A DNA stretch of 64,000 nucleotides from an uncultured Pseudomonadales bacterium (GTDB taxonomy: Bacteria; Patescibacteriota; Microgenomatia; UBA1400; PJMF01): positions 2,514-66,513 of the forward strand of contig CAZSJW010000001.1 in the NCBI GenBank assembly GCA_964607285.1, read 5' to 3'. Position 1 is the first letter of the stretch. Each line of letters starts with the position of its first letter. This document shows positions 25,748 to 64,000 of this stretch, piece after piece. Made by a program: the position numbers and the translations under genes. Below the pieces are notes generated by a model. That model had not been told where the DNA came from and made no database searches. It saw only the letters and a program-made list of their open reading frames with translations.

Positions 25748-26724
25748 TTAACTAAAGTATTTTTTGTGAGGATCCATGTTCGGATCAGCTTTTTCAAGCC
25801 GAACAGTGAATGGTGAGTTGGCTCTGTGGTGTTCTGCAGTCATCATGGCGTAGGCCTCAATTTCTTCGTTACTTAGCAAGTTTAGCGCTCTGTCACTAAT
25901 CATACTCACAAGTATGCTAACTGGCATAGCTAGTCCAATTGAGACGTTTACACTTGGAGGTAGCTGAAGATTCAGCAAAGACAATCCAGTAGAAGCCCAA
26001 GAAAGAAACAAAGCACCTTTAAAGACGGAGCGCATTAGGTTAGCAATTTTACGATGTCTAATATGTGAATCTGTGATTCCCTTATCCTTCTCTGGCTTTA
26101 AGTATTGCACTAAATGCTCACGCTCGTGTCGCCACATCGCATCCAGTGCTTGCTTGATGTACTGAGTTTTCATTTCTGGAGGCAGCGTATCTTTGGGAAA
26201 AACCACACGAACAGAACTTAGTGCATGTTTGCTAAATAAGGAGTGTATGCTGATGATATCAGGACTTACTTTAGCCGAGCGTAGTTGAAATCGATGATTG
26301 AAACGAGTCTCTTTTCAAATGTTTCGAGTATCCCTTCCCAGTCAAATCCGAGCATTGAGCCAAGCTCAGCAACTTTTCTTACGAATGTCCCTTGGTCTTG
26401 CTCATTTTTTCCAGGTCTTCGTCTTTGATTAAAAAGTACAATATTGTCTCTACCAATTATTGGGAAAAAAAGTTTTGCTGCTAGTTCTGCCCTGGGCTCA
26501 GAAACCCCTTGCTGTATAGCATACTCGTAGAGATCCTGGCGCATCTTACCTGTATCTACTGAAATAGTTGCGATGTCATCATCAAAGGGTTGGATAAGCT
26601 CATACACTTGATCTTCACCCAGTTCCAGTAGTTCCTCATCTGTGATTTCCTGAGGTCTGACAGGAGCGATATCTAAAGTATTTGGATGTAAAGTATCTGT
26701 AGAATGTGTCTCATCGTAGTTCAT
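25748..26724 (-). pseudogene. Frameshifted paralog of 24779..25708 (tracked as two ORFs, 26266..26724 and 25748..26206)
   Basis: The N-ORF aligns to the N-half of the intact paralog and the C-ORF to the C-half (LDAMWRHEREHL, EIEAYAMMTAEHH). C-frame homology continues upstream of its ATG (NHRFQLRSAKVSPDIISIHSLF vs NHRLLLTEPKMQFDILSLYSLF). The frames switch near GAAAAG (26311..26316). Confidence 0.7.
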
Positions 26725-26841
26725 AGTTGTTTATCCCTATTGTTTGGGAACTATCCAGATACCAGCGTAGCATACGCAACAGAGCTTGAGAAGCCAACAC
26801 TGACTTGCGGAAACGGTGATAAATCAGCATACTGTGAGCAG

Positions 26842-31289: not shown

Positions 31290-32951
31290 ATGCAGTATCA
31301 TAGCTTTATGACAAACTTTGAATGGGAACCTGAGTGGGAAGATGAGGTGGAGCCAACACCTCCTGTTGTAATGACAAAACGACAGTTTTTACTGGATGCA
31401 GTCAGAACTGCAGCAGCAGTGGGTCTAGGTGCTGCTTTTGGTTACCCACTTGGCAGGTATGGGACTACTTCTCAAACGGAGCATCCAGACGCATCGGTAC
31501 CCCCTGTGGCTCAGGTTGATGCTCGTTTACAATCCTCATATCCTGAAACATATAGTTCGTACAAAGAGTATAGCTTTACCCCTCCAGAGAATATGCGGGC
31601 AGTGGCTGGCAATGGCAATTACGCACAGGAGGTGCAGCGCCGAGATCAGACGAACACGAGTGACAAGGGTATGTTTGACTCTGAACTGTTGAATACCCCA
31701 GATGGAGTGCCACATCAGCGCATTTTTTGCGAAGCCAAAAATAGAAAGACGGGGGAAGTAGAACGAGTACTTGTGTTGGATACTGATTGGTTCAGGGGTT
31801 TTCCTATCAGCATACAAAGAGCAAAGGTCTCACCAGACGGACGACTCATGCTGTTTTGGGGGACGCGGACCCTTGCAAGTATTGGTGGTGTGGATACAGT
31901 ACTACCAATACTAGAACCTAGTTCAAGTGATGATACACAGACACAAATCTGTATTGCCATGAAAATTTCTGATGCCCCTGCGCATACTCCTAAATTTACA
32001 ATACTAGGCAGTGATGCTACATATGCGTTTGACTCTCAGGGAGTGATTCATTCGCTAGAGACGACTCAATCATACACCATTGGTTTCTTTGGTGTACCAG
32101 AGCATAGAAATGAAGTAATACCAGCATTTTGTAAGCGGACAGCGCGAGATACTGTTTCTGGGTATTACGATCTTCAGTCTGAAGCGGGGACTACTTTTAC
32201 ATCAAAAGTTCAATTTGCTGAATCATTACTGCAGTCTACTCTGGGAGTTAGCAGTGAGTACAAGTTTGTTGGAGTGAGTACCCAGGTACCCCCAAGGCGA
32301 TTTTATGATCAACGGTTTGCAGTTTCGCCTGATGGGCTCGTTCTTGCAGTGAACACGAGGTCAGTCTTTTTCTTCGACCAGCAAACAGCAAGTTCAAAGT
32401 CGTCAGTGTCTTGTATTAGAAATTTGGGGTCAACTGGGAGCAATTCTGACTTTACCGTTGTGACAGCTTTCGATTACCCTGAAATTTTTGATCTTCGGGG
32501 AGCTGTCCAAGCGCAGGATGTTGAGTTGGTTGGAGTCCTTCCTGATGGAAAGTTTGTAGTTGCGTATGCGGTACAGAGACCGCTAGATGCTATGTACATG
32601 GGCACTGAAGTTCGCGCTTTAGGTGTTGTTACGCCTGTCCCTGTATGGGAACATCCCAATGGGTATACATTATCCTTAATTGTAATAGAAGGTGAAGTAG
32701 ATGCTGTGGTGCAGAAGGCTGGACATTTTGCTTTGACGCTTCGCAGTGGTGAAGTGGCACAGTTTCCAGAGAGTGCACTACAATCAGCACTAAAACCTGG
32801 ATCAATGTATTCGTTACACCCAGAAAAGGGTCCTAGTGCTCTGAAAAAAATTGGATACTTAGGTCTGGTCTTGCCCAGTTCTCCCAGTGAGGAAATGGCT
32901 CCCCCTGTTCCTAGACCTGCACCCAGGCGTTACTGGGAATCAGTAACATAG
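31290..32951 (+). CDS. Exported protein with PD40/beta-propeller-like SPDG repeats
   Basis: MTKRQFLLDAVRTAAAVGLGAAFG (Tat-like KR variant; alternative start 31371). Repeats VSPDGRLMLF, VSPDGLVLAV, LPDGKFVVAY. Confidence 0.75.
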   Translation: MQYHSFMTNFEWEPEWEDEVEPTPPVVMTKRQFLLDAVRTAAAVGLGAAFGYPLGRYGTTSQTEHPDASVPPVAQVDARLQSSYPETYSSYKEYSFTPPENMRAVAGNGNYAQEVQRRDQTNTSDKGMFDSELLNTPDGVPHQRIFCEAKNRKTGEVERVLVLDTDWFRGFPISIQRAKVSPDGRLMLFWGTRTLASIGGVDTVLPILEPSSSDDTQTQICIAMKISDAPAHTPKFTILGSDATYAFDSQGVIHSLETTQSYTIGFFGVPEHRNEVIPAFCKRTARDTVSGYYDLQSEAGTTFTSKVQFAESLLQSTLGVSSEYKFVGVSTQVPPRRFYDQRFAVSPDGLVLAVNTRSVFFFDQQTASSKSSVSCIRNLGSTGSNSDFTVVTAFDYPEIFDLRGAVQAQDVELVGVLPDGKFVVAYAVQRPLDAMYMGTEVRALGVVTPVPVWEHPNGYTLSLIVIEGEVDAVVQKAGHFALTLRSGEVAQFPESALQSALKPGSMYSLHPEKGPSALKKIGYLGLVLPSSPSEEMAPPVPRPAPRRYWESVT

Positions 32952-32954
32952 CAG

Positions 32955-34391
32955 TTACTCTCTGGTTTCACTTGGTTTGATTAACACACTGCCACCAGCG
33001 GGCATGCCGCCTTGGGCGAGTCGGCAAAGTTTGAGAAACTCTTCTGGAGTTTTGGCATTTCGCAACTCAGATGTATGCTGTGATATGTAGGTAAGTTCTA
33101 GTGCTCGCTGATTTCGGTCAATGTTGTTGAGTGGATGAGAAGGAATTGTGAGCCCAAGTGCTTGCACGATTAATTTGAGTTCTTGAGGAGCGGTACGAAA
33201 ATCGTCCGAGAGTTCCTCATATTCTTGCCATCCAGCGTTCAGCTTGTTGGACAACAGTACTGTCTGCATAGCTTCATCTGCGGTCATGTAGAGTAATTTT
33301 CCTACAATTTTAGGATTATGAGAGTGTTCCACTATCTCTAGGCGAAGAAGTGTCCCATGCGGTTGCAGGGCGTTGTTGTCATGCAACAAGCTGACCGCAA
33401 ATGTGCACTGAGGTTGGGATACGTCATCGGCATCTACTTTGGGTAGTTGTACCACTAGTTCAAGATGGGGCGCATCCACAGGTGTAGCTAAGCTCTCATC
33501 CGCACTTTCTCGTACCAAAAGTTTTTGAGTGAGAAGTTCGCAAAAATGGGCAATAGCACTGAGTCGGTGATGTTCTGCCACCAGATCGTACCCCTTATGC
33601 CAAACTTCATAAATGTTTTGCTGCACTTGATCTAGATCTTTGAGCAGGTTGTGTTGCACGAGGTGGACATACAAGGCTAGAAAGTTTTGTAGAAGCTGGG
33701 GTTCGCCCAGTACAATATTGCTTAATCGGGCATTTGCCTCTTTGTTTGTAACCACAATACAGTCACTTTCCTCAATGCCTTCACCTACACGGATGGAGTA
33801 TCCATAGCCACCTGGTAATGGTTCAAGGTAGGGTTGCTGGAGTTTTGCGTGTTCTAGTTTGGTTGGATCAAGCAAGTACTCTGAGGGGTCCATAAACGGT
33901 GAGTTTCTGTCCCAATCTAACTGGGCAGCCTGCATGAGCTGTGTGTTGAATCGGCGGAGCAGCTTTGCGGGCGAGTACTCGCTAGGTACGTTGCCATATT
34001 GGTTGAGTGCGTGTTTTCTGATTTTTTGCTCATCGCTTTGTGTGAGCAAGTGCGCCAAGATTGTCTGCAACTGATCGGGTTTGCCAGTTCTATACAGATC
34101 AGTTGCTGTCACAAGGTCAACATACATCGTGTAGACCCAAGGGTTTTCTGGAACGGTGACTTCAGATACGAGAGCGATGAGTGCCTGAGGCATAATGGAA
34201 TCAGATAGTTGCAGCACCTCTGTGACCAAGGCTGTGTAGACCTCAGATAGTGGGTAGTTTCTCCAGCGAACGTTTGGGTACAAGATACGCAGTGGTACAG
34301 GTATGACTTGTCGTAGTTCAGTAATGAGTCTCTTGCTCTCTGCTTCGGCTATGCGGTGGAAGAGTCCTTCTGGATTGGTGGATGGGTGCAT
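32955..34391 (-). CDS. Hypothetical cytoplasmic protein (478 aa)
   Basis: Long uninterrupted ORF with ordinary composition and no recognised motif. Convergent with 31290..32951, with a 3-nt gap. Confidence 0.75.
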   Translation of the reverse strand: MHPSTNPEGLFHRIAEAESKRLITELRQVIPVPLRILYPNVRWRNYPLSEVYTALVTEVLQLSDSIMPQALIALVSEVTVPENPWVYTMYVDLVTATDLYRTGKPDQLQTILAHLLTQSDEQKIRKHALNQYGNVPSEYSPAKLLRRFNTQLMQAAQLDWDRNSPFMDPSEYLLDPTKLEHAKLQQPYLEPLPGGYGYSIRVGEGIEESDCIVVTNKEANARLSNIVLGEPQLLQNFLALYVHLVQHNLLKDLDQVQQNIYEVWHKGYDLVAEHHRLSAIAHFCELLTQKLLVRESADESLATPVDAPHLELVVQLPKVDADDVSQPQCTFAVSLLHDNNALQPHGTLLRLEIVEHSHNPKIVGKLLYMTADEAMQTVLLSNKLNAGWQEYEELSDDFRTAPQELKLIVQALGLTIPSHPLNNIDRNQRALELTYISQHTSELRNAKTPEEFLKLCRLAQGGMPAGGSVLIKPSETRE

Positions 34392-50808: not shown

Positions 50809-51879
50809 TTACACTTTGATTTGGTTTGTAGCTTTTACTGCGTCCCAGATCTGTTTTTGGATTTTCTTCAGAACATCTGTGTGTTCAGTTAGATATGCTT
50901 TTGTTGCTTCTCTACCTTGAGCCATGACTTCACCTTCGTACTTGTAGAAACTGCCACTTTTTTGGATGATGTTGTGCTGGCTACCGATATCTACAATGTC
51001 TCCAGTGAGTGAGATGCCATTGTCATCCATGTCAAACTCGGCCTCTTGGAATGGTGGTGCAACTTTGTTTTTCTTGACTTTGACTTTATGGCGACTACCT
51101 ACAATTTTGTCACCTTCCTGGATGTTGCCAATTTTTCTGACATCTAGGCGTTGTGAGGCATAAAACTTGAGAGCGTTACCCCCTGTGGTGGTTTCGGGAT
51201 TGCCAAACATAACACCAATTTTGTGGCGAATTTGGTTGGTGAAGATGACCAAAGTTTTTGTTCGGTTGATGGCGGCTGTAAGTTTTCGCATAGCCTGGGA
51301 CATAAGTCTAGCTTGGACACCCATTTGTGCATCGCCCATGTCACCTTCAATTTCTGATTTTGGCACTAGGGCTGCGACTGAGTCTATAACTACGATATCC
51401 ACTCCACCTGACCTTATGAGGGTTTCAGCTATTTCTAGCGCCTGTTCGCCGTAGTCAGGTTGAGAGATGAGGAGTTCCTCTAGTTTGACACCAATTTTGT
51501 GCGCGCGTTGTGGATCCAGTGCGTGTTCTACATCTACAAACGCTGCCACACCACCTTCTTTTTGGACATTTGCAATAGCGTGTAAGCAGAGTGTGGTTTT
51601 GCCTGATGCCTCTGGGCCATAAATCTCAATAATACGACCTTTTGGATAACCACCAACTCCTAGTGCAAGATCGATCGCAAGCGATCCACTTTGAATGACA
51701 GGCATAGATGCCATGTTTTTGAGTGACTCACCCATGCGCATGATTGAGCCTTTGCCGAAATCTTTTTCAATTTGCTGCATAGCAATATTCACTGCTTGTA
51801 GTCGGGCTGATTTCTCTGAATTTGGAGCACTGGCCTCTGGTGCAGTTGTTTTTTGATTTGGCTTTGCGGTTGCTATCAT
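50809..51879 (-). CDS. recA: Recombinase RecA
   Basis: ATG at 51879 with [21 protein letters not shown], Walker [49 protein letters not shown]. Confidence 0.95.
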
Positions 51880-52096
51880 ATGATGACCTCTTGCACTAAT
51901 TTGTACGAATATGTGACCATGTCTGGCTGTACAATACAGGATCGAACCAGCATCTGACAAGTGTCAGGTTTTGGGTTTTCTTCTCACTCTGTATTGCCAG
52001 AGTCTGCTGTGTACCTTGCGTATCACTGAGGGTATAATAGGGCTCGTTCCTGACAAAAACTGTAGAGTTTTCGAGGCAGTTTAGTGAGAAACAAAT

Positions 52097-52170
52097 CGGG
52101 GAGTAGTTCAGATGGCTAGAATGCTCGCATGGGGTGCGAGTGGTCGCAGGTTCGAGTCCTGTCTCCCCGA
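52097..52170 (+). tRNA. tRNA-Pro (anticodon GGG)
   Basis: Hand-folded cloverleaf. Acceptor CGGGGAG/CTCCCCG, D-arm with GG, anticodon stem CTCGC/GCGAG, loop AT-GGG-GT, 5-nt variable loop, T-arm GCAGG-TTCGAGT-CCTGT, discriminator A. CCA not encoded. Confidence 0.9.
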
Positions 52171-53831
52171 CATTCAAGGACAGAGGGTAGTTTTGCAATG
52201 GTTTCGAACTTAGGATTCCATTGGTGAGTCAATACTTTTTTGTCCTTTATAGTGAAGTTCAAAAAGACCATTCGAATGATACTGTCTGTTGCTAGGTGAT
52301 TATCGCTTGTTTTCAGAGTAGAAACGATGTTTTTGATAAAGTTCGAAAAGTCTGTGTAAGACATCACTTTTTCTTTGAGTAAAGATTGAGCATCAACTCG
52401 CTGGCTCTTTACCTGTGCCAGTTTAGCTTCTAATTGCTCGATTTCATCCCTGGCTTGGAGTATTTTTTCTCTTGCTACCTTGATTGACTTGTCATCACCC
52501 TCAAGTCTCACCACGATAAGCTGTTGGTCTGAAATAATTGTTTCCAGGTCGTTTATTTGTTTGGAAATAGAGCGTTGGTCGCTTTCCAACTCTTTGGCAG
52601 AGCTAACTAATTGGCGTTTGGCATCTGCCACGTACTGGTTGTAGGCTTTTTCGTCTATACCGATGCCACCTGCTAATACCTCATAAACATACTCAAAAAT
52701 AACTTTTGCCCTGATTTCTCGTAAACCCTTCACCTTGTGAGAATAACAACCGCCAGTGGAACACTTTATTCGTAGATAAGTGATAAGTGACTCTGGTTTA
52801 TTTTTATTGAGATATGTTGTCATCAGGTTACCGCAGTACCCACACACCACCATCTGGTCTAGCAGTGGAGTTGCTTTGTCCTGAGCCTTCTTATAGCCCC
52901 TTTTACCGTCCAGAATGTTTCGCAAGCGTAAGTAGTCCAGATATGACATCGCAGGTGTAAATAAGTGGTCGAACTTAGTCAGGTCAACCATATTTTTTCC
53001 ATACACGTAGTAGCCAGTATAGGAGGGGTCGAGAAACATTGCTGAGACGAGTTGTTTCGTCATCCTGGTTTTTTCGCCATTTTGACTGTAGTTGTTTTCA
53101 TTGAGGTACGATGCAATCACATCTTGTGATTTGCCTTCGATACCCATCTGAAACGCTTGCTGGATGAGTTCAAAGTTTTTCCCATCTTTACGTTGGCGTT
53201 TATTGATTACTTTGTAACCTCGCAGAGCCTTGTTGCCGATGGCTTTGCCTTCACCGATAATGTTTTCATTGCCTCTTGAAACGTTTATGGAGAGGTTATC
53301 ACTGTAGGCTTTGGCGAGTAGAAACTGTAAGCCAAGGGTCATCAGTCCATTCGGGTCACGCTGAAAAGAAAACTGTGGAAACTTGAGGTCTTTGATAATA
53401 CCTCGGTCGATTAGGTCAATAATCTCACCTGCATCCTTCATATTTCTCCCAAGGCGGTCTGGATGCCAGCAGATGATAGCGTTATACGATTTCTTAGACT
53501 TGATTTCGTCCATCATTTCTTCAAATACCTCACGGTTAGCCGATTTTCGGGCTGATTTTTCTTCCTTGAGAACATCTACCACCTTCAAACCCTCACGCTT
53601 GGCTAGAGCTTTACTGTCTTTGATTTGGTCTGGAATGGAGCGTTCTTGACGTTCTACTTGCTTGCCATCTTGGTTTTTCTTTTTACCCTTAGTAGATTTA
53701 CGAGCGTAAATGACATACACAGGTGGCTTGTCATCAGGGAGTGGTTTTCCCGCCTTTTCTAAGCGGTCAAAAACGATGCTTTGAGCTATTTCAAAGACTT
53801 GCTGTTTATATTCTGCATTGGTGTCTGGCAT
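52116..53831 (-). CDS. Large serine recombinase (phage-integrase type)
   Basis: N-terminal resolvase domain VIYARKSTKG...SIPDQ...DRLGRN. Recombinase domain. Zn-ribbon CGYCGN...KCSTGGC. Coiled coil. The last ~18 codons run antisense through the 3' part of tRNA-Pro. Confidence 0.88.
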   Translation of the reverse strand: MPDTNAEYKQQVFEIAQSIVFDRLEKAGKPLPDDKPPVYVIYARKSTKGKKKNQDGKQVERQERSIPDQIKDSKALAKREGLKVVDVLKEEKSARKSANREVFEEMMDEIKSKKSYNAIICWHPDRLGRNMKDAGEIIDLIDRGIIKDLKFPQFSFQRDPNGLMTLGLQFLLAKAYSDNLSINVSRGNENIIGEGKAIGNKALRGYKVINKRQRKDGKNFELIQQAFQMGIEGKSQDVIASYLNENNYSQNGEKTRMTKQLVSAMFLDPSYTGYYVYGKNMVDLTKFDHLFTPAMSYLDYLRLRNILDGKRGYKKAQDKATPLLDQMVVCGYCGNLMTTYLNKNKPESLITYLRIKCSTGGCYSHKVKGLREIRAKVIFEYVYEVLAGGIGIDEKAYNQYVADAKRQLVSSAKELESDQRSISKQINDLETIISDQQLIVVRLEGDDKSIKVAREKILQARDEIEQLEAKLAQVKSQRVDAQSLLKEKVMSYTDFSNFIKNIVSTLKTSDNHLATDSIIRMVFLNFTIKDKKVLTHQWNPKFETIAKLPSVLECRGDRTRTCDHSHPMRAF

Positions 53832-53881
53832 TATTTTTATCTCTTGAGTTATCTACCAGTATTATAGCTTTAGATACAAAA

Positions 53882-53904
53882 AGAGCCGAGGGTGAGTCGG
53901 CTCT
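53882..53904. terminator. Hairpin AGAGCCGA-N7-TCGGCTCT just upstream of the recombinase gene
   Basis: 8-bp perfect stem flanked by an A-run on the left and a T-rich run on the right. Could terminate in either direction. Confidence 0.4.
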
Positions 53905-54269
53905 TTACTTTGCTGTGTTCTAGCCTTTAGGATTTACTTGTCATTGACAGCAACCTTTTGTTTGACGCCTGGCTAAGCTTCATCTCTAAATCTGCATTTT
54001 GTTGCCAGTTTGTGCGGTCTTCAAAATTGATTGGCGCTAAAAGCTTATCAGAATATGCCTTAGCTTCTGGAGTTCTAACACCATCAACCACTGGCTCTTG
54101 ACCTGTTTCTTCAAAATATAATTGGTCTGCTCCAGAGGAAGGTTTTGATGACTTTGATCAAGCGGCTGCTCATTATCATTCTGTTGGGAACTTTATTGTT
54201 GTATTTGTTAATAGTTTCGATGACACGGATGTAGACTCATATGTTGCTTGCACAAGACTTCGACACGAA

Positions 54270-54863
54270 ATGAACCATGCGGGAAGCGTAGTTAAGCATC
54301 GAGCATATCCTAACGACCAGGGAGGGAAAGACTATAAACAGTATAGGGTTGGAGCGAGAATTGACCCAAAAGAACAGGGTGGTGCAGTACTTGGTCTGGT
54401 CTTTGATGAAGGACACCATTCGGTTGAGGATAAGCTTGACTCATTCTCATTTTCTAAATACAGAGGAATGGATCAATTTCTATCTGGCTTACCTGATTTG
54501 AATGAGGTCTTTCCAGGAGCTGATACTAAACTGAGAGGATTATTTTTAGATGCACTTATACGGAGCGAGGTAAGCCCTGATCAGATGCTCATAAGCTATC
54601 GCACAGTACACAGAGATGGTACTGCTTTTCATTTGCTAGATTATGCTGAAAGGTACACCGATTACGAAAAACTAATGGTGAAACTGTATACTAGCAATCC
54701 CAAACTGTACCAGTTAGCCGTGGACTGTATATATGGAGACAATATGATTGCTTTTGCCAAGGAGATCGATACAACATTTGGATCAGGTTATTTTCGAAGA
54801 TTAATGGAAGCAAAGGACAGACAAGCCGCCATCAAATTGTATGAAGAATTGGACACACTATGA
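54270..54863 (+). CDS. Hypothetical protein; annotated ATG sits inside an HEMNH (HExxH) motif
   Basis: 197-aa ORF. The same frame is open back to 54102 (..SYVACTRLRHEMNHAG..) without any ATG/GTG/TTG. Confidence 0.55.
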   Translation: MNHAGSVVKHRAYPNDQGGKDYKQYRVGARIDPKEQGGAVLGLVFDEGHHSVEDKLDSFSFSKYRGMDQFLSGLPDLNEVFPGADTKLRGLFLDALIRSEVSPDQMLISYRTVHRDGTAFHLLDYAERYTDYEKLMVKLYTSNPKLYQLAVDCIYGDNMIAFAKEIDTTFGSGYFRRLMEAKDRQAAIKLYEELDTL

Positions 54864-54972
54864 ACAAAAGTGAAGTACTAGCAATCAGCACAAGTTCCAA
54901 AATGGGTAATCAGATGGGTTCTATCGTGCTAAAATTAAACAGCAAAGATGCTAAATGCAGATCAGGTGATGT

Positions 54973-56376
54973 ATGGAAATTGCACAATTTCTTTTAGGTC
55001 ATGAGCAGGGTGGGAATGAAGAGATCTTCTTAAACAAGGTTGCAGCCATAACTGGCATTAAGCCTTTGAAACTCTCAGACAACCCTGCCTGGCTCGCCGA
55101 TACGTTTAAACAGTACTCCGATCGACTTAAGTGGAGAAAAAATAGAAATACTGATCACCAGTATATTCATGATGAAGGAATGCATCCTTGTGCATTTAGT
55201 CCTGTTTTGCCTAATAGTTTGTTGCGATCACATACTTTTGCAATTACGGAGCAAATGATAGCGTTTGTGGAAGTGTTTGAGGCGTATGTGCAAAGAGTAC
55301 CAACTATCACTGAACTAGAAATCATTGGACTGCTTAGCACTAAGGATACTGTTCAGTCAAAATTTTCCAACACAGCAATAAATGCCATAAATGCTTTGTA
55401 CTATTCGCTCCCCGATTCTTTTTCTGAAGAGAGTGGTTTGGCTTCAATGTTTACTAACAATCGAATCATTAATCGGGCAATAGGATCCTTTATTGATACG
55501 CATGTATCGGGTAATGCACTCAGCATTGGTGAGATTTGCTCTGGTCGAAGAGCTGCCAAGTGGACCGAGATTGCAAGTAAACTGCCCAATAAATCAGTCA
55601 GTATTCATCTTTCAGATTTTGTTGCACCAACACTTCCTGACCTTACGCAGGAATCTAATGTCACAGCAGTTACCTCTGAGCAGTATTCGCTTTTGGATGA
55701 ACTACCATTTTTACCTGACAGTGAAAAAAGAGATGTGCATTTAGCTACATATGGGTTTGATAGTGTTTGGTCAGAGCATGACGCTCGTTATCATAAACAG
55801 AATGGCAAATGGTATCGTGAATTTAGTAGAGTTAAGGTACTTGATACGCACCCGCGAAAAGACCAAATGATAGCAGCTCTGAGGACTGGTACTGCATTTC
55901 CTGGAATGCAACTATCTGATTTTGGCAGTGTGTTTGTTGAATCTGGCATAGAAGAGGTGGACATGAGTATGGAAGCTAATGGGTCGATAATTGCTGATGA
56001 ACTAGAAGACAGCTCACGAATTGAGCTAAGCTACCCTGGTGGTATGATCCATCACATACAGGCAGCATTTCAGCGGCAGCTTAAACAAGATGGTATCTTT
56101 ATCATTGGTGACACTGCAGCTATCAGCAATGGTGAGAGGTTTTCGACTAAACAAAGCTATGTGAGTGGCGTTGCAGCACGGTATAAAAGGGAAGACTATC
56201 TATTGGCAAAAAGAATCCTCGATGAATTTGGGTTCACTGCTGATATATATCCCCTCAATGATTTTGTGACTGGGGTGCTCGGTGAGGGCTGGAAATCAGA
56301 GGCAACTACAAATGAACATGATCTAATTACAGAATCACTCACTAGTGTAATAATGGTAGTGAAAAAAAAGAGTTAG
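54973..56376 (+). CDS. Hypothetical 467-aa protein (weak resemblance to class I SAM-methyltransferase fold)
   Basis: Long ORF. LSIGEICSGRRAAKW and IFIIGDTA loosely resemble methyltransferase motif I and post-I strands. Not verified. Confidence 0.6.
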   Translation: MEIAQFLLGHEQGGNEEIFLNKVAAITGIKPLKLSDNPAWLADTFKQYSDRLKWRKNRNTDHQYIHDEGMHPCAFSPVLPNSLLRSHTFAITEQMIAFVEVFEAYVQRVPTITELEIIGLLSTKDTVQSKFSNTAINAINALYYSLPDSFSEESGLASMFTNNRIINRAIGSFIDTHVSGNALSIGEICSGRRAAKWTEIASKLPNKSVSIHLSDFVAPTLPDLTQESNVTAVTSEQYSLLDELPFLPDSEKRDVHLATYGFDSVWSEHDARYHKQNGKWYREFSRVKVLDTHPRKDQMIAALRTGTAFPGMQLSDFGSVFVESGIEEVDMSMEANGSIIADELEDSSRIELSYPGGMIHHIQAAFQRQLKQDGIFIIGDTAAISNGERFSTKQSYVSGVAARYKREDYLLAKRILDEFGFTADIYPLNDFVTGVLGEGWKSEATTNEHDLITESLTSVIMVVKKKS

Positions 56377-56380
56377 CTAG

Positions 56381-56653
56381 TTAGTCTCGGAGCTCAAAAA
56401 AAAGGCCGTTGATAGTGAGACCGTTGGGATGCACTTGCAGAGTCCCTTTGTTGCCAGATCCAATCTGTTTTGTTCCGACAGATCCATTCTTTTCACCTCC
56501 ACAAAAAATGCTGCCCCCATACGGTAAGTGTTTCTTCAACTCTTTATCTATAATCTTTTGCTCTTCGTACTGCTTTTTATCTTCATTCCAGACGAATACC
56601 TTACTGCGTCCTCCAAACACTATCTCAGCAATTCTGGAACCAAGTTCTCCCAT
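56381..56653 (-). CDS. Hypothetical 90-aa protein
   Basis: ORF preceded by AAGGA and TATAGT/TATACT-like boxes. Convergent with 54973..56376, with a 4-nt gap. Confidence 0.5.
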   Translation of the reverse strand: MGELGSRIAEIVFGGRSKVFVWNEDKKQYEEQKIIDKELKKHLPYGGSIFCGGEKNGSVGTKQIGSGNKGTLQVHPNGLTINGLFFELRD

Positions 56654-56834
56654 ATGTATCCTTTAGTATACTATACTACTTACCACTCTTGCAGCACAAT
56701 AATTTCACAAGCAAAAAGTGGTGATTGTATACTCACATGAAATGGACAACTACCACTGCTCATTATGATTAAAGAAATACTTTTTGACATGTATGGGGTG
56801 ATTATTGATATCAGAAACTGATACAATCAAGACA

Positions 56835-57407
56835 ATGCAAGTAAGTAAGCTCAAGCCATGGCAAGTAGTTAGCACGAAGGTAGTCCACACAACTCCTTGG
56901 ATTGAAGTCGTTGAAGATCTTTGTAAAATTGATGCTACTTCTCTGACCTATACATATACTCGCAGAGTAGATGAAGGACCTTTGATTATTGCTGAGGCTG
57001 AGGATAACAAGATTTGGTTGGTTCGGCAGTATAGGCATGCTATCAAAAAAATTATATGGCAGTTTCCTGTAGAAGGAAAACTAGTTGCGGAATCCTGGGA
57101 AGCGGCTGCACAGCGAGGACTTGAGGAAGAACTTGGTTTACACGCTGACAGATTGGTAGAGTTGGGGACATTTTACCCAGACCCTGGTGGTTTGGAGCAA
57201 AAGTATAAGGCCTTTGTTGCTACAGGCCTGCATCCATCAACTGCTCAACACAGCGACCCTAACTTAGACGAAGTTGAACAGCTAGAGGCAGGTTGCTTTT
57301 CTTTGCAAGAAGTTGAGCAGCTGATAACTGAGGGAGAAATCTGTGATAACTGGACACTGTCGGGATTATTTTTGTATCGGCGATACCGTCATTCGCTAGG
57401 ATTGTGA
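56835..57407 (+). CDS. NUDIX hydrolase (ADP-ribose pyrophosphatase-like)
   Basis: Nudix box GKLVAESWEAAAQRGLEEELGL (G-x5-E-x7-REuxEExGu). ATG at 56835, or the tracked TTG at 56805. Confidence 0.85.
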   Translation: MQVSKLKPWQVVSTKVVHTTPWIEVVEDLCKIDATSLTYTYTRRVDEGPLIIAEAEDNKIWLVRQYRHAIKKIIWQFPVEGKLVAESWEAAAQRGLEEELGLHADRLVELGTFYPDPGGLEQKYKAFVATGLHPSTAQHSDPNLDEVEQLEAGCFSLQEVEQLITEGEICDNWTLSGLFLYRRYRHSLGL

Positions 57408-57413
57408 GTCACT

Positions 57414-57686
57414 ATGAAACCAATCGTTACAAGACCTGGTAGTTTTGGATCGAGAAAAGCTTCAGTGCCACGCCCGTCTTTCGGCCAAGCTCGTGCCGAC
57501 CAGATGCAGCAAAGAATGGACAAAGCATTCAAGGAACGAAGAACTTTGGCAGCAGCACAAATAGGCGCGCAGCAGACTAACAACGAGCCTTTACAACAAG
57601 CACTCGCTGTAAAGGAACGAATGACAGAGCATAAAATTGATCGACTGGTTGCAGAAATGCCAATATCGGGCAAATCAGAAGACTAA
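57414..57686 (+). CDS. Hypothetical 90-aa protein
   Basis: ORF starts 6 nt after the NUDIX stop. Gln/Ala-rich, no motif recognised. Confidence 0.5.
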   Translation: MKPIVTRPGSFGSRKASVPRPSFGQARADQMQQRMDKAFKERRTLAAAQIGAQQTNNEPLQQALAVKERMTEHKIDRLVAEMPISGKSED

Positions 57687-57742: not shown

Positions 57743-58909
57743 ATGTCAGATCAAACTATAAATTGTCCAAAATGTTCGACCGCAATCCCCCTGTCTCAAG
57801 CACTCACGGCACAGCTGGAGTCTCAGTTTGCAAAGCGGTTTGATGAGCAGTTAGTTACTGAAAAACGCAAGCTGTGGGCTCAAGCTATGCAGGCTGCTGA
57901 AAAAAAAGAACTAACGAGCAGAAAGGAGTTGGAAGAGCAACTTAAAGAAAAAGCTCAAAAATTGGAAGCAGCAGAAAAAGCTGAGCTGGAACTCAGAAAA
58001 AAATCGCGTGATATTGAGGAGCGAGAGCGAACATTTGATCTGGAACTGCAGCGAAAGCTTGATGCGGAGCGGACGCAATTGATCTCTAAAGCAAAACAAG
58101 AGGAAGCTACAGAGTTTACCAAAAAACTGATGGAGAAAGATACACAACTTGATAGCATGAAGAAGACAATCGAGGACCTCAAACGTAAGAGTGAGCAGGG
58201 ATCAATGCAAGTGCAGGGTGAGTCACTCGAACAGACATTGAAAGACCTTCTTAAAAATACCTTTCCTGCTGATGAAGTGTCTGATGTACCCACTGGAATA
58301 ACTGGTGCAGATTTAGTGCAACAGGTGCAAGGTAGGGTGGGTGCAAAAGTGGGCACAATTCTTTGGGAGTCCAAAAACACTAAAGCATTTAGTGAAGGTT
58401 GGTTGACAAAGCTAAAACAGGATCAGGGCAAAGTGAATGCTGAGATTGCAGTATTAGTTACGCAAGTCCTGCCGCCAGAAATTGCACCGTTTGGTGTAAA
58501 AAATGGAGTGTGGATAGTGGATGTGCAACATGCTGTACCAGTGGCAAGTATTTTGCGTATGCAGCTGATTGAGTTATTTAAGTTGGCTCGTTCCGTTGAA
58601 GGTCAAGATGAAAAGATGACTCAGTTGTACGGGTACTTAACTGGTCCACAGTTTAAAAATCGTGTTGAGAACATGGTAATTGCCTTCATGTCTATGCAAC
58701 AAGATTTAGCTGCAGAAAAGCGTGCATACCAGAAGCTTTGGGGAAAACGGGAAAAAGAACTGGAAAAATTGCTTGCACACACAGTGGGCATGTATGGTGA
58801 TTTTCAAGGAATTGTCGGTGGCTCACTGCCCACCATTCAGCAACTTGAACTTGCTTCTACTGATATGGACAGTGATCAACCGAGTTTACTTGGTAACGGA
58901 GAACTATAG
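57743..58909 (+). CDS. DUF2130-like protein: Zn-ribbon + coiled coil + PD-(D/E)XK-type nuclease core
   Basis: N-terminal INCPKCST. ~150-aa Lys/Glu coiled coil. C-terminal GADLVQQV...GTILWESKNTKAFSEGWLTKLKQDQ (D...ExK). Confidence 0.75.
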   Translation: MSDQTINCPKCSTAIPLSQALTAQLESQFAKRFDEQLVTEKRKLWAQAMQAAEKKELTSRKELEEQLKEKAQKLEAAEKAELELRKKSRDIEERERTFDLELQRKLDAERTQLISKAKQEEATEFTKKLMEKDTQLDSMKKTIEDLKRKSEQGSMQVQGESLEQTLKDLLKNTFPADEVSDVPTGITGADLVQQVQGRVGAKVGTILWESKNTKAFSEGWLTKLKQDQGKVNAEIAVLVTQVLPPEIAPFGVKNGVWIVDVQHAVPVASILRMQLIELFKLARSVEGQDEKMTQLYGYLTGPQFKNRVENMVIAFMSMQQDLAAEKRAYQKLWGKREKELEKLLAHTVGMYGDFQGIVGGSLPTIQQLELASTDMDSDQPSLLGNGEL

Positions 58910-58912
58910 CTG

Positions 58913-61900
58913 ATGTCAAGTAACTTTGCAGCAGAGTATGCCCGTCTCAATGCACAACAGCGGAAAGCTGTGGACACCTTAGAAGGTCCAGTCATGGTGA
59001 TAGCTGGCCCAGGTACTGGAAAGACCCAAGTACTGGCAATGCGAATTGGTCAGTTACTCAAGAAAACTGACATAGAGCCGCGAAACATTTTAGCTTTAAC
59101 GTTCACCGATGCTGCAGCTACGACAATGCGACATCGTTTAGCAACACACATTGGTTCAGCAGCATACAGCGTGCAGATTGCCACGTTCCACTCTTTTTGT
59201 AGCCAGGTGATCGCTGATCACCCCGAGTCATTTCCCTTTGAGCGAGACAGCTTACCACTAACAGAGCTTGAGAGATATGAACTGATAGGTGAGATTTTGA
59301 CAACTGAGCCACTGGAAGAGCTTCGTCCATTGAATAGACCATTGTTCTACAGTAAAGACTGTTTGCGGGCAATTTCTCAATTAAAACGTGAGTATGTATC
59401 TCCTGATGCACTTCGTTCAATGGTTGTTGCCGATCTTGATTTACTAGAACAAGGAATTCCAAAAGCAACAGTTGCACAGCGGCGAATTATTGAAAAACGA
59501 CTAAAAAAGCAGGAAGAACTTGCTCATGTATTTTCAAAGTATGAGGAGCGATTGCGGTCTGCACATAAAATTGATTTTGATGACATGATTAGCTTTGTTG
59601 TCACTGGATTTAAAAATGACCCAATGTTACTGCAGGAGTATCAGGAGCTGATTCACTATATTCTCGTTGATGAGTACCAAGACACAAATTCAGCACAGAA
59701 CGAGATAGTATCTTTGCTTGGTTCATATTGGGGTGAGCAGGCTAATGTATTTGTGGTTGGTGATCCTCATCAGTCAATCTTTCGGTTTCAGGGCGCGTCA
59801 ATGGAAAATATGTTTAGGTTTGCGGTCCAGTACCCAACTGCTGCAGTCGTGACACTGACTGACGGGTACCGTTGTGGGCAGCATATGTATAGTGCTGCAC
59901 ATGCGTTGGTTGCAGCTCAGGATTTACCAATGCCTTTTGAGCTTCAGCCGGGAGTCGCACAGGTACTTACTGATTCACTCTCAACACAGTTGCGCTCACA
60001 GGCAGCAAATCCAGGTATGGTTCGTTCTGTGCAGTTACCGACAAGCACAGCAGAGCAACTCTACATAGGGGAACAAATACAGCAACTTCACTCTGATGGT
60101 GTTCCACTATCACAGATAGCTGTTCTATACAGAACCAATGCAGAAGGCTTAGAGTTAGAGAACGTTCTTGGATCACTTGGTGTTCGCTATCAAATTGAGC
60201 GTGGCTCAAATGCTCTAGAAGTTCCGTTGATTACCCAGATTCTCAGCCTAATTTCTATGCTTTTTCATTTGCGCTCTGCACAAGATAGTGAGGCTTTTAC
60301 TGTGATGTGTTTTGACTGGATTGCAGTAGATAGATTGGCTGTGTATAAACTCACCCGTCAAGCTGCGATTGCTGGCAGATCACTTGTTTCTTTAGCGGAA
60401 CTTTCATGGGATGAGTTTCAATTACAACAAGCACAAGTGGATGTGGCTGAGCACCTTTCTGAAGCAGAGCATAGTTCGGTACACAGTTTAGTTGAGCAGT
60501 GGATTAGGTGGATCACAACTGAGCCAAGCATCCCATTTTCTCATTGGTTTAGTTTGGTACTTGAGCAAACGTCATTGATAGATTGGATTGTTGCCAGACC
60601 ACAGTCGCAAGAACTATTGAACGCTGTGCAAGGCATTTTTTCGCTCATACAAGATTCGGTAGCAAACGATCATTCGTTCAATTTAGGTGACTTCATTGCT
60701 ATGATTGACACTATGCAGGAGCACGGCATCGCAGTTCGTCAGGAAGATGTGCGTACGACAGCAGAAGCTGTGACTCTAAGCACTGCGCATAGTGCCAAGG
60801 GTAAACAGTGGCAGCATGTTTTTATATACAACTGTATTGACTCACATTGGGGAGGATCGAGAAGTGTAGATAAGTTGCCCCTACCAGAGCACATACTCAA
60901 ATATAGCGCTGTTGCAGACAAGTTAGCACAAGCCGAGGCAGATGATAGACGGTTGTTGTATGTTGCTATGACTCGTGCACGTAAGACATTGACCATCACT
61001 TATCCTGCGTTTGTCGTTTCACAAGGCAAACAGAAACCACAGTTGCCAAGTCGTTTTCTATCCCCTTTAGAAGACTATATTCAGTGTGTTTCAAACAAAG
61101 ATGTTACAGAATTTGGTGAAGCTGCTGAAGCAACAATACCTAAATTGCTTTTACCAAATCCAGCTATGTCCACTGCAGAGTCTATAGAAGCTGAACGCAG
61201 CTTTTTCTCGTATCTGGTCAGTACGTTCTCACTGTCTGTTTCAGCACTTAACCATTACTTAGCAGATCCCAAGCAGTTTAGGGATCAGGATTTGCTGCGC
61301 GTGCCTAGCATAAAAGATGCCTATTTTTCGTATGGTTCGGCTATGCACAAAGCCCTAGAACTTTGGCAGCGGCCGAAACTTTCAGGTGGTTTGCCAGCCT
61401 CCTTGCCAGTGGTCATGCAAGAATTTGATCGGGCTTTGGCAAAGGAAGTACTAACTGCTGATGAGTTTACTCGCAGACAAAAAAAGGGTCATCAAGTTTT
61501 GAGTGAATACCTTTCCCATGAAGAGGGTGCCCTTAGCCATGTGTTTAGTATTGAGCGGCGGTTTGGCTCGTTGCGTTCACCCGTATACCTGGATGATATA
61601 CCACTGAAAGGTCGAATTGATCGGATGGACTGGATTGACCAGCAAGCAAGTTTAGTAAGGGTTGTAGATTACAAAACGGGCAAACCAAAAACTGTTGGTC
61701 AAATCATGGCAACTGTAGAGTCGGTAGAACTATCTGAACGAGAGCGGTCATTGCCAGAAACAATTAGAGGCCCGATGATCCGTCAGTTGGTTTTCTATAA
61801 GTTACTTGCAAATTTGGATCCTAGTTTTCAGGGGACAGTCACCCATGGAAGGTTTATTTTTGTTGAACCAAACAAAAGCACTAGGACGCCATTCGTGGTT

Positions 61901-62005
61901 CGTGAGTTTGAGATCACAGACCAAGCTGTTGCCGATCTTAGCGCATTGATAAAAACTATCATGACTGAAGTGAGACAACTAGTTTTTTTAGACAAGGCAT
62001 CCTGA
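58913..62005 (+). CDS. UvrD/PcrA-type SF1 helicase fused to a C-terminal RecB-family PD-(D/E)XK nuclease
   Basis: Walker A AGPGTGKTQVL, ILVDEYQDTN, VGDPHQSIFRFQGA, TAHSAKGKQWQHVF, YVAMTRARKTL. C-terminal GRIDRMDW...VRVVDYKTGKP. Confidence 0.9.
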   Translation: MSSNFAAEYARLNAQQRKAVDTLEGPVMVIAGPGTGKTQVLAMRIGQLLKKTDIEPRNILALTFTDAAATTMRHRLATHIGSAAYSVQIATFHSFCSQVIADHPESFPFERDSLPLTELERYELIGEILTTEPLEELRPLNRPLFYSKDCLRAISQLKREYVSPDALRSMVVADLDLLEQGIPKATVAQRRIIEKRLKKQEELAHVFSKYEERLRSAHKIDFDDMISFVVTGFKNDPMLLQEYQELIHYILVDEYQDTNSAQNEIVSLLGSYWGEQANVFVVGDPHQSIFRFQGASMENMFRFAVQYPTAAVVTLTDGYRCGQHMYSAAHALVAAQDLPMPFELQPGVAQVLTDSLSTQLRSQAANPGMVRSVQLPTSTAEQLYIGEQIQQLHSDGVPLSQIAVLYRTNAEGLELENVLGSLGVRYQIERGSNALEVPLITQILSLISMLFHLRSAQDSEAFTVMCFDWIAVDRLAVYKLTRQAAIAGRSLVSLAELSWDEFQLQQAQVDVAEHLSEAEHSSVHSLVEQWIRWITTEPSIPFSHWFSLVLEQTSLIDWIVARPQSQELLNAVQGIFSLIQDSVANDHSFNLGDFIAMIDTMQEHGIAVRQEDVRTTAEAVTLSTAHSAKGKQWQHVFIYNCIDSHWGGSRSVDKLPLPEHILKYSAVADKLAQAEADDRRLLYVAMTRARKTLTITYPAFVVSQGKQKPQLPSRFLSPLEDYIQCVSNKDVTEFGEAAEATIPKLLLPNPAMSTAESIEAERSFFSYLVSTFSLSVSALNHYLADPKQFRDQDLLRVPSIKDAYFSYGSAMHKALELWQRPKLSGGLPASLPVVMQEFDRALAKEVLTADEFTRRQKKGHQVLSEYLSHEEGALSHVFSIERRFGSLRSPVYLDDIPLKGRIDRMDWIDQQASLVRVVDYKTGKPKTVGQIMATVESVELSERERSLPETIRGPMIRQLVFYKLLANLDPSFQGTVTHGRFIFVEPNKSTRTPFVVREFEITDQAVADLSALIKTIMTEVRQLVFLDKAS

Positions 62006-62006
62006 C

Positions 62007-63290
62007 ATGCTAGAACTAGACAAACTGCCTCTCAGAGATAAAAAAGTGCTTCGAGACACTATGGAGTTTTTTTTTGTTGAAAACACGGATGTTGTTGCAG
62101 CTATTTTACATGAGTTTTCACTTGCGGATGATGGGTTGGCTGAGTTTAGTGCTAAAGTGGAAGCTTTAGCTCGAAAATTGGTGTTGCTGTTAGGTTCTGA
62201 GCCGCAAGCAATCAAAACAGTTGAGTTTTTGCTTGCGCGAGACCTGAACCTTAGTGATTCAAGGCGAATTATTCTGTACTCCTTTCTGCTATTTTTTACA
62301 GGTGACGTACAGGAGGAAGACTTACCAAGTAGTACTGAAAATATCAACCAGGAATTTGATAAGAAACTATGGTTGTCAGGTTTTTTATCACAGAACAGTC
62401 AATTATCAGTGGCTGAGGTGCGAGTGGTGGAAGCATTTATTGAACATAGAGTAACTGTGAAGGTAATTAATGGAGTCAATGTATTACTGGTTACTGATGA
62501 TCATTCAAACTATGAGACTACGCAAAGAAATGAAAGTGCTTCTCAAGCAGTTGAAATTATACTTGGATCCCAAAACACAAGTGGGGTGCTTGTTGAATAT
62601 TTTCCTCAGGAGTTGAAAGAGAATGCAAGTAAGAATGTGCTTGTAAGAAATGCACTTAAAGGAATGCGTTCAGGTACCTTTGGGGCATTTTTAAAGAAAT
62701 ACCATGATTCTAGGTTTGAGAGTGCTGTTCCATATTTGGACCATGCTAATGCTGTAGGTAAACCAGTGTGGGTCGCTGACACAGCGAATAAAATTACTCA
62801 TGAATTGGCTGAAGTCCCTCTTTTGTACTCGTGGTGGGTTAGTGTTGCAGTGGTCGCATTAGCAGGGTGTCTATCACTGGCTCCATCGTCTCAGGAAATG
62901 CTAGAGGTTGAGAAGCTGCTTGAATTGCTTTCTGTGGCAAGTTCCGCAGCTGGGTATCTAGAACTTTTTTTTAAACCACTGTTTTTCAAATTGGATGACA
63001 TGATGCCCTGGTTTGAAGCTGTTTTTCTACAAGCAGATGATGCGCGACGCATTAGAGTAGCAAGAGCTATTGGTGTCTTGACAGCAGATCAGCAAGTTGG
63101 CTCTACGCTACTTGTGGTGTACCCCGATGCGCATTTGCGGCGAATACGTCACTATCTAGAGCATCCTGAGTTTGCTGCTTGGAAGGACAAAATATACAAA
63201 ACAGTTCTTTTCTGGTTAGATTATGAACTACGCACTTACAGATTCGATGCTCAACAAAACTTGTGGAACAAGAACACTCAAAAATTTTGA
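62007..63290 (+). CDS. Hypothetical 427-aa protein translationally coupled to the helicase-nuclease
   Basis: ATG 1 nt after the helicase stop. No recognised motif. One central hydrophobic stretch WWVSVAVVALAGCLSLA. Confidence 0.7.
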   Translation: MLELDKLPLRDKKVLRDTMEFFFVENTDVVAAILHEFSLADDGLAEFSAKVEALARKLVLLLGSEPQAIKTVEFLLARDLNLSDSRRIILYSFLLFFTGDVQEEDLPSSTENINQEFDKKLWLSGFLSQNSQLSVAEVRVVEAFIEHRVTVKVINGVNVLLVTDDHSNYETTQRNESASQAVEIILGSQNTSGVLVEYFPQELKENASKNVLVRNALKGMRSGTFGAFLKKYHDSRFESAVPYLDHANAVGKPVWVADTANKITHELAEVPLLYSWWVSVAVVALAGCLSLAPSSQEMLEVEKLLELLSVASSAAGYLELFFKPLFFKLDDMMPWFEAVFLQADDARRIRVARAIGVLTADQQVGSTLLVVYPDAHLRRIRHYLEHPEFAAWKDKIYKTVLFWLDYELRTYRFDAQQNLWNKNTQKF

Positions 63291-63302: not shown

Positions 63303-64000
63303 TTATTTCCATCGCTCTGTAGCAAAGTACACAGTGTCTTTGAACTCAGTCGAAACAGGGATACCTGTCCAGTGCGGATACCAGACTGCAAACGTGATTA
63401 AGATCAGAAGTACTAGTGCAACAGAAAGTTTACGCAGCTCAGGGTGTTTAAGCAAAACCCAACTCAAAATAATTGCCATGAGTGGTACAGCAGGGGCGTA
63501 GTGGTAGAAAAACATGATCCGAGGAGAGAGTTGCCAAGGTAGCCAGACGGCAAAGTAACTAGCAATCATCAGACCCATTGGTTGTATTGCTGAGTCCCGT
63601 ATGGCTCGTACTAATCGGGAAGCAGTGATTTGTTTTTTTTGCAACTTCTTTGTTACTTGTTTGAGAAGAGCTAGTGATGAAATTACCACTGCTGCTGCAC
63701 CTGCCCAAAATAGCATCGGATTGCCAAATGCATATATGTCTCCTCGCTTGCCATCTGCATACTGGACATGATACCAAGCTGGCCTCATGTTTGTTACCCA
63801 CTGCCATGGTCTTGACTGATACGGGTGTTCTGCTTTTAAATTTGTTTGGTACCAGTAGATTTGCTTGTGCATGTCAAAAAAATGCTGCAAATCTTTACCC
63901 TGCATGAACATGTGGCTGTAACTAAGTAGATACATTGTGAGAGGAATTATGGCCAAACAGAGAACTCTTGTGAGTATCCACTGCAGCCAGTATCCTGTTT
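63303..64000 (-). CDS. GT39/PMT-like phospholipid-carrier-dependent glycosyltransferase, C-terminal part (5' end off-window)
   Basis: The frame is open to the window edge. The EHPYQSRPWQWVTNMRPAWYH block is typical of PMT-family enzymes. C-terminal TMs. Confidence 0.75.
   Translation of the reverse strand, partial: TGYWLQWILTRVLCLAIIPLTMYLLSYSHMFMQGKDLQHFFDMHKQIYWYQTNLKAEHPYQSRPWQWVTNMRPAWYHVQYADGKRGDIYAFGNPMLFWAGAAAVVISSLALLKQVTKKLQKKQITASRLVRAIRDSAIQPMGLMIASYFAVWLPWQLSPRIMFFYHYAPAVPLMAIILSWVLLKHPELRKLSVALVLLILITFAVWYPHWTGIPVSTEFKDTVYFATERWK

Follow-up and report, generated by a model that had tools for sequence, protein, structure and literature searches.

Herein, we describe a group of genes in a 64,000-nucleotide (nt) stretch of contig CAZSJW010000001.1, hereafter called the window. 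The window is an ordinary chromosome segment of Microgenomates type from the Candidate Phyla Radiation (CPR, or Patescibacteria), with genes for SecY, RpoA, a release factor, a Mur ligase, FemAB, RNase Y, and RecA, and its closest homologues carry the labels Woesebacteria or Pacebacteria. Three open reading frames (ORFs) on the plus strand are tightly spaced. These are a DUF2130 gene (gene 1, 57743-58909, 388 amino acids (aa)), a gene for a fused helicase and nuclease (gene 2, hereafter the helicase-nuclease gene, 58913-62005, 1030 aa), and gene 3 (62007-63290, 427 aa), which abuts the helicase-nuclease stop codon and is co-directional with it. An earlier reading of the same DNA, the original prediction, had placed three ORFs here with gaps of 3 and 1 nt, and the coordinates and junction letters agree exactly. 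The first junction reads TAG-CTG-ATG, and GGAG precedes its ATG by 9 nt; the second reads TGA-C-ATG. A further ORF of 90 aa (57414-57686, plus strand; hereafter the small ORF) had been overlooked. It lies 56 nt before the DUF2130 gene and 6 nt after the stop codon of a NUDIX hydrolase gene (NudE-like, 56805-57407, plus strand), which is co-directional with the unit. Promoter and terminator scans gave background levels, and no terminator-like site was predicted between the helicase-nuclease gene and gene 3.

The position of this group was compared among related loci, and the following order was fixed: SBP-(SecG)-RNase Y-recA, (tRNA-Pro and a variable stretch), small ORF-DUF2130-helicase-nuclease, and the convergent genes PMT-UbiA-GT4, where PMT is protein O-mannosyltransferase. 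In the window, the upstream anchor is recA (50809-51960, minus strand), which is divergent from the unit. The downstream anchor is the C-terminal part of the PMT gene (63303-63956, minus strand; PMT_4TMC, 1.2e-24), which is convergent with gene 3; ORFs that run off the source are left out of the ORF listing, and the PMT gene may reach the window end. In 14 related loci, recA lies 0.5-3.5 kb ahead of DUF2130, and its identity is 75-81%. The PMT gene directly followed the helicase-nuclease gene in 13 loci (L008-L014, L017, L020, L021, L023, L090, and L093), and it followed with a 118-aa ORF between them in L001. Three loci (L090, L091, and L093) have a helicase-nuclease gene, 42-44% identical, in the recA-to-PMT slot and lack DUF2130; recA lies upstream of it in L090 and L093. 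The slot is thus kept across CPR genomes whose unit proteins are 40-89% identical. Where DUF2130 is 86-89% identical to that of the window, all three genes from the small ORF to the helicase-nuclease are retained and gene 3 is missing. The unit is present in 3/3 close relatives. The conserved unit is therefore the small ORF, DUF2130, and the helicase-nuclease.

We next consider how closely DUF2130 and the helicase-nuclease go together. Adjacency was counted on 65 species-representative loci with enough flank, grouped by the identity of their DUF2130 to that of the window. A locus was counted if a helicase-nuclease gene followed DUF2130 on the same strand at an alignment offset of less than 2.5 kb (mostly less than 200 nt). 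Adjacency was seen in 3/3 loci at an identity of at least 60%, in 12 of the 19 loci at 50-60%, in 4 of the 23 at 45-50%, and in none of the 20 at 40-45%. The two genes overlap by 4 nt in L005. In addition, the pairwise protein distances co-varied. The correlation was r = 0.94 for DUF2130 vs. RecA (p = 0.0005, 14 genomes), r = 0.78 for the helicase vs. RecA (p = 0.0030), r = 0.75 for the helicase vs. PMT (p = 0.0005), and r = 0.65-0.77 for DUF2130 vs. the helicase (p = 0.0005-0.0065). The mean protein distances were 0.20 for RecA, 0.40 for DUF2130, 0.51 for PMT, and 0.53 for the helicase, and DUF2130 was 86-89% identical where the helicase was 70% identical. The fixed slot and the co-varying distances are signatures of vertically inherited core genes.

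The product of gene 1 matched Pfam DUF2130 (PF09903, COG4487) with E = 9e-65 and 219 bits (gathering threshold 26.7) over profile positions 3-252 of 255. The family is well conserved, with a mean column identity of 54% among 25 CPR sequences. The elements QGSxQxQG, D177, D181, D190, and W-E209-S-K211-N-T-K were invariant in 25 homologues, and by sequence D190 together with E209-x-K211 (ILWESKNTK) constitutes a PD-(D/E)XK signature. DUF2130/COG4487 has been listed in the PD-(D/E)XK superfamily with function unknown, and RmuC is likewise filed there with unknown molecular function (Steczkiewicz et al. 2012, PMC3424549). Between residues 20 and 165, 45% of the positions are charged and proline is lacking, which fits a coiled coil (about 145 aa). 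Both the Lys/Glu coiled coil and the D..ExK core of the original prediction are therefore borne out. The zinc ribbon it had proposed holds in part. A single CPxC (C8 and C11; 57764-57775), which reads CPKC in the window, precedes the long coiled coil and is invariant, and no second Cys/His knuckle, that is, no further conserved Cys or His, was found among the 25 homologues. Because only one CPxC is present, the protein does not have a complete four-ligand zinc ribbon. As a speculation, two DUF2130 chains could share one zinc ion via their single CPxC, in the manner of the Rad50 hook. At the other end, a variable acidic linker leads in most homologues to an [ST]L[FLW] motif that lies at the C-terminus or close to it (58850-58909 in the window, and P0002-P0121), such as ...DEPQSLF and ...EDETPTLF. 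This tail resembles a linear motif of the sliding-clamp-binding or SSB-tip-like kind.

The protein had also been called RmuC-like. Its layout, with a coiled coil at the N-terminus and then a PD-(D/E)XK nuclease domain, is shared with RmuC (E. coli YigN, PF02646). The N-terminal CPxC and the acidic tail that ends in an [ST]LF-type motif set it apart from RmuC. The Pfam RmuC profile gave no match at E <= 0.01, and the hhalign comparison with E. coli RmuC, a weak test with a single-sequence template, was not significant (probability 0.07). The likeness is thus one of layout, and membership of the RmuC family is not demonstrated, since the profile comparison was not significant. A search of the PDB with DUF2130 returned coiled-coil noise and no relative.

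Gene 2 encodes a UvrD/PcrA-type helicase with a C-terminal RecB-family nuclease, as had been proposed; both domains and their intact motifs were found. The Pfam matches were UvrD-helicase (1e-67), UvrD_C (1e-20), and PDDEXK_1 (9e-18, residues 773-1020). The SF1A motor of UvrD/PcrA type extends from residue 1 to about 730, and the RecB-family PD-(D/E)XK nuclease occupies residues ~770-1030. All SF1A motifs are present. Among 120 homologues, GPGTGKT, DEYQDTN, and VAxTRxR of the motor and H812, D903, D919-Y-K921, and Q958..Y962 of the nuclease were conserved at >= 95%. No Fe-S (iron-sulfur) cysteine cluster was found, and the nuclease domain contains no Cys at all. Thousands of CPR proteins, ~1000-1050 aa long, have the same architecture. 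In the PDB, PcrA/UvrD gave the best match (1e-51), followed by AdnB (2e-32, motor only) and AddA (5e-16, 58 residues). The protein did not reach the NCBIfam equivalog cut-offs of PcrA (294 vs. 911), Rep (256 vs. 951), or UvrD (226 vs. 1144), and it missed those of AddA and RecB by a wide margin (addA_Gpos 113 vs. 708, recB 102 vs. 696). PcrA, UvrD, and Rep rank first among its sequence and structure-database matches for residues 1 to ~725, and like them it has the full set of SF1A motifs; unlike them, it carries an extra nuclease domain of ~260 aa.

The comparison with AddAB, AdnAB, and RecBCD gives both likenesses and differences. The helicase-nuclease resembles AddA, AdnB, and RecB in its length (~1000-1200 aa in that class) and in its order of parts, an SF1A UvrD-like motor and then a C-terminal RecB-family nuclease with GxID...DYK...QxxxY motifs. 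Its gene neighbours recA, as in that class, and the operon encodes two nuclease active sites, a number also found in AddAB and AdnAB. However, its helicase core is far closer to PcrA/UvrD than to AddA/RecB, and it lacks an Fe-S cluster. The second nuclease here is the small coiled-coil DUF2130 protein and has no helicase-like scaffold, and DUF2130 is dispensable at the locus in many genomes. Finally, no AddB/RexB, RecC, RecD, or AdnA-type partner accompanies it. The 64-kb window holds no second helicase-like or RecB-nuclease ORF, in line with the earlier remark that an AddB/RexB-like partner is absent, and among the related loci only L073 has such an ORF.

The small ORF is the tightest partner of DUF2130. 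Its family was found by jackhmmer upstream of DUF2130 in 25 distinct loci, in 23 of them within 250 nt, and tblastn detected it with 37-61% identity upstream of DUF2130 in the close relatives. It is kept even in L018 and L022, where the helicase-nuclease is missing, and the family was absent from helicase loci without DUF2130. Small ORFs that precede the DUF2130-less helicase genes in L090 and L093 were considered as members and rejected as unrelated membrane peptides. The protein has a basic N-terminus, an SFG-x-RA...ER motif, and a helical C-terminal half, and it matched nothing in Pfam or PHROG.

We therefore favour, with a probability of roughly 0.55, the view that the unit is a vertically inherited, cooperating recombination and repair cluster on a CPR chromosome and not a defence island, with a mechanism that we infer. 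The original prediction had offered a lineage-specific machine for double-strand-break processing as one of two equally viable readings; the evidence favours this one, and gene 3 is no part of it. The helicase-nuclease would be the anchored core gene, a PcrA/UvrD-like 3'-to-5' SF1A motor carrying its own RecB-type nuclease. Judging from domain content and synteny, its role is most likely end processing. It would load at DNA ends, gaps, or stalled forks, unwind and cut like AddA, AdnB, or RecB, cleave the strand it tracks with the RecB-type nuclease, and feed single-stranded DNA to RecA. It may do so without an AddB, RecC, or AdnA-type partner. In one subclade, the small ORF and DUF2130 would have entered this transcription unit just ahead of the helicase gene. 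The DUF2130 protein probably dimerises through its coiled coil and uses the small protein as a cofactor. As a facultative second nuclease, it would probably add a further nuclease activity or a structure-specific one, acting for instance on the strand that the helicase-nuclease leaves uncut. The end-processing theme fits an observation from other CPR groups: in L067, L068, L070, and L076 (Peribacteria, Peregrinibacteria, and Gracilibacteria), DUF2130 adjoins a 659-aa DHH/DHHA1 ORF of RecJ size. DUF2130 adjoins a DEAD-box/DbpA helicase in L036, L040, L061, and L074.

Several observations weigh against this view. First, L018 and L022 retain recA together with the small ORF and DUF2130, but a UvrD-like gene is missing within 8 kb. 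Since each of the two proteins occurs at the locus without the other, their association is facultative, not obligatory. Second, relatives of DUF2130 reside on 51 plasmids, mostly rhizobial conjugative ones, near ParA, relaxase, DUF736, or toxin-antitoxin genes (for example, pMLa of Mesorhizobium japonicum, L094, and a Bradyrhizobium elkanii plasmid, L096), and in seven Helicobacter heilmannii prophage records, near ParA (L095). The plasmid and prophage copies are always solitary, with no helicase partner. The DUF2130 family is thus not confined to chromosomes, whereas the DUF2130-helicase-nuclease pair is. Third, small CPR genomes generally tend to preserve their gene order, and proximity to recA may mean little functionally. 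Fourth, because its core is closer to PcrA/UvrD, the helicase-nuclease could be the PcrA/UvrD of the lineage with an added nuclease and not an end-resection enzyme. Finally, the literature on DUF2130/COG4487 and on this helicase-nuclease family yielded passing mentions, and no functional, biochemical, or genetic study was found.

The same observations bear on the main rival, in which DUF2130 and the helicase-nuclease are core DNA-metabolism genes that act separately and whose adjacency is inherited gene order. The helicase-nuclease would then be the PcrA/UvrD equivalent, serving nucleotide excision repair, mismatch repair, fork clearing, or removal of RecA filaments, and DUF2130 would be an RmuC-like stand-alone nuclease. 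The occurrence of each gene at the locus without the other speaks for this rival. DUF2130 also stands alone in other phyla, on plasmids, and in prophages, no helicase lies near it at 40-45% identity, and over its full length the helicase is matched best by the PcrA, Rep, and UvrD families. However, the two genes are adjacent on the same strand with tiny gaps or overlaps in 19 loci that span 45-89% DUF2130 identity, and the fused RecB-type nuclease with its intact active site is foreign to PcrA, UvrD, and Rep. We hold separate action to be possible but somewhat unlikely.

The cooperating repair cluster may be drawn in a more specific form, which we consider doubtful at present. The small protein, DUF2130, and the PcrA-like helicase-nuclease could constitute an undescribed end-resection machine with two nucleases and one motor that replaces AddAB, RecBCD, or AdnAB in a CPR subclade. 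Its second nuclease would be no dead-helicase scaffold like AddB but a dimeric coiled-coil PD-(D/E)XK protein. The N-terminal CPxC could pair two DUF2130 chains round one zinc ion, like a Rad50 hook, and the C-terminal [ST]LF tail could tether the dimer to the sliding clamp or SSB. If this is true, the widespread DUF2130/COG4487 family would gain its first function.

The other reading put forward by the original prediction was an anti-phage or anti-plasmid system, in which the helicase-nuclease and the second nuclease, with or without gene 3, sense and degrade invading DNA in the way of Gabija-, Hachiman-, or Nhi-type systems. PADLOC was run on six proteins between 54270 and 63290, on both flanks of the helicase gene. 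The helicase-nuclease gave strong matches to GajB-type UvrD helicase models, and a UvrD-family helicase beside a nuclease gene is what this locus shares with Gabija (GajA-GajB) and similar systems. However, these matches reflect generic UvrD similarity. GajA was matched by none of the six proteins, so the OLD/TOPRIM nuclease of Gabija is missing, and the helicase here carries its own RecB nuclease. DUF2130 had only weak coiled-coil matches (LmuB and JetC; E of 1e-5 or weaker), and gene 3 had none. RecBCD/AddAB-type enzymes restrict linear phage DNA as a side effect, and DUF2130 occurs on some conjugative plasmids and in prophages, both of which speak for a defence role. Against it, only five relatives of DUF2130 were found in 2.9 million viral contigs, none with a helicase, and DUF2130 is highly conserved and not fast-evolving. 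Patchy distribution, variable location, and decoupling from host phylogeny were not seen. The locus, unlike Gabija, is fixed and vertically inherited: the slot beside recA and PMT holds across genomes 40-89% identical, divergence tracks RecA and PMT (r = 0.94 and 0.78 with RecA for DUF2130 and the helicase), and the unit is in all three close relatives. The defence-island composition is therefore not upheld, and we regard a dedicated defence system as very unlikely.

The serine-integrase element and the NUDIX gene upstream had been counted for the defence reading. Both exist as proposed. The integrated element, in the interval 52097-56700, comprises tRNA-Pro(GGG) (52097-52171, plus strand), a large serine integrase (52116-53831, minus strand) with Resolvase, Recombinase, and Zn_ribbon_recom domains that matches phrog_95 and whose 3' end runs into the tRNA gene, and three cargo ORFs on the minus strand at 54270-54863 (197 aa), 54973-56376 (467 aa), and 56381-56653 (90 aa). 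The cargo ORFs matched nothing in Pfam, NCBIfam, PADLOC, or PHROGs, and Rfam found only the tRNA. A search for an att direct repeat of the 3' end of tRNA-Pro, which could have marked an island reaching as far as the operon, gave only chance-level matches of 14-22 nt; to our knowledge, serine integrases are not expected to leave such a repeat. In L008, three different genes fill this interval. The element at tRNA-Pro is a separate insertion upstream of the unit, which speaks against the defence reading. The NUDIX gene matched Pfam NUDIX at 7.7e-10 and NudE at 1e-14, the latter below the family cut-off. It is not conserved at this position (56805-57407), and the close relatives hold a different NUDIX gene on the opposite strand. 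A NUDIX(-)/small(+) gene pair beside a relative of gene 3 (L087) was compared with the NUDIX/small pair upstream of DUF2130 and rejected, with no match.

Gene 3 had been described as without a recognisable domain, and indeed no sequence-level match was obtained in Pfam, NCBIfam, PADLOC, or PHROG. A word-indexed search retrieved only the protein itself, exact look-up in the contig index retrieved nothing, and a profile search of the PDB gave no match. An exhaustive HMMER scan of 1.84 billion representatives detected 34 distant relatives of 180-503 aa, with 25-37% identity to residues ~135 to 427; gene 3 is thus not an orphan. The family has in common the motifs DH, EYFxPEL, GKxVAVADIAN, EDARR, and YPxAHxxR. 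The window protein has a unique helical N-terminal extension and one hydrophobic segment of ~21 aa (267-290), which suggests membrane association. Its fold, as modelled by AlphaFold2 (AF2) with an alignment, appears closest to TraB/ChaN and divergent from it. The protein would differ from the TraB/PrgY/GumN-ChaN-Tiki superfamily by its extra N-terminal helical region and hydrophobic insert. Foldseek of the model vs. the PDB gave nothing significant, 0/35 members of the gene-3 family had a Pfam match, with none to TraB/PrgY/GumN (PF01963) at E <= 1, and hhalign vs. E. coli YbaP was not significant (probability 0.2).

The gene-3 family was found in none of the 85 DUF2130 loci, including the genomes with DUF2130 86-89% identical, and four relatives of gene 3 elsewhere lie in unrelated contexts. 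Because of this, the three genes are not one conserved unit, and the three-gene system proposed at the outset does not hold. The slot between the helicase-nuclease and PMT genes varies: L001 has the 118-aa ORF there, and L004 has one of 240 aa that is encoded on the other strand. Gene 3 is a strain-specific insertion between the helicase-nuclease gene and the PMT gene; it is probably co-transcribed but no functional component of the unit. That its product serves this strain as a true third subunit, perhaps anchoring the helicase-nuclease to the membrane or regulating it, is most improbable: the 1-nt gap on the same strand, the lack of a predicted terminator-like site before it, and one relative located between ruvC and ruvA speak for this, whereas its absence from 85/85 related loci, the unrelated contexts of its relatives, the different genes that occupy its slot, and a predicted TraB/ChaN-like fold with no known nucleic-acid role speak against it. 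The relative in question, P0128 (L088, 3855-4871), sits just after a PhD/PIN toxin-antitoxin pair and is another gene-3 family member wedged into a DNA-repair operon.

Other features of the window and its relatives were recorded. The listed start of recA is a TTG that adds ~36 N-terminal residues matched in no relative. Because homology begins at about residue 37, this start is probably too far upstream, and the true start is probably an ATG at about residue 28-37. Many of the contigs behind L006-L085 are titled 'uncultured Pseudomonadales' or 'Gammaproteobacteria'. Their genes for RecA, RNase Y, DUF2130, and PMT share synteny with CPR genomes and have their nearest counterparts there; the taxonomic assignment of these metagenome-assembled genomes looks wrong. 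A lamin-tail-domain protein is encoded at 15797-16969 (minus strand). Five large ORFs (478-1128 aa) had no Pfam match at E <= 1e-5: 17022-20408, 21783-23432, and 32955-34391 on the minus strand, and 26704-28986 and 31290-32951 on the plus strand. They are typical CPR dark matter.

The recurrent association of DUF2130 with the helicase-nuclease is real; the fusion of a motor with a RecB nuclease is of a kind already known from the AddAB/AdnAB/RecBCD class, and nothing here is so far surprising to a recombination specialist. The locus also provides a lesson. Closely packed genes, two nucleases, a helicase, and an integrase close by mimicked a defence island, and comparative synteny resolved it into core-genome equipment plus one unrelated gene. 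CPR bacteria account for a large part of bacterial diversity; their genomes are very small, and hardly any of them are ever cultured. We found no functional work in the literature on CPR recombination. For the step that starts RecA-dependent repair in these organisms, a concrete candidate is the single-chain PcrA-like helicase with its RecB nuclease, kept beside recA across the lineage. For DUF2130/COG4487, a widespread family that also occurs in Firmicutes, on rhizobial plasmids, and in cyanobacteria, the operonic partner provides the first testable functional context.

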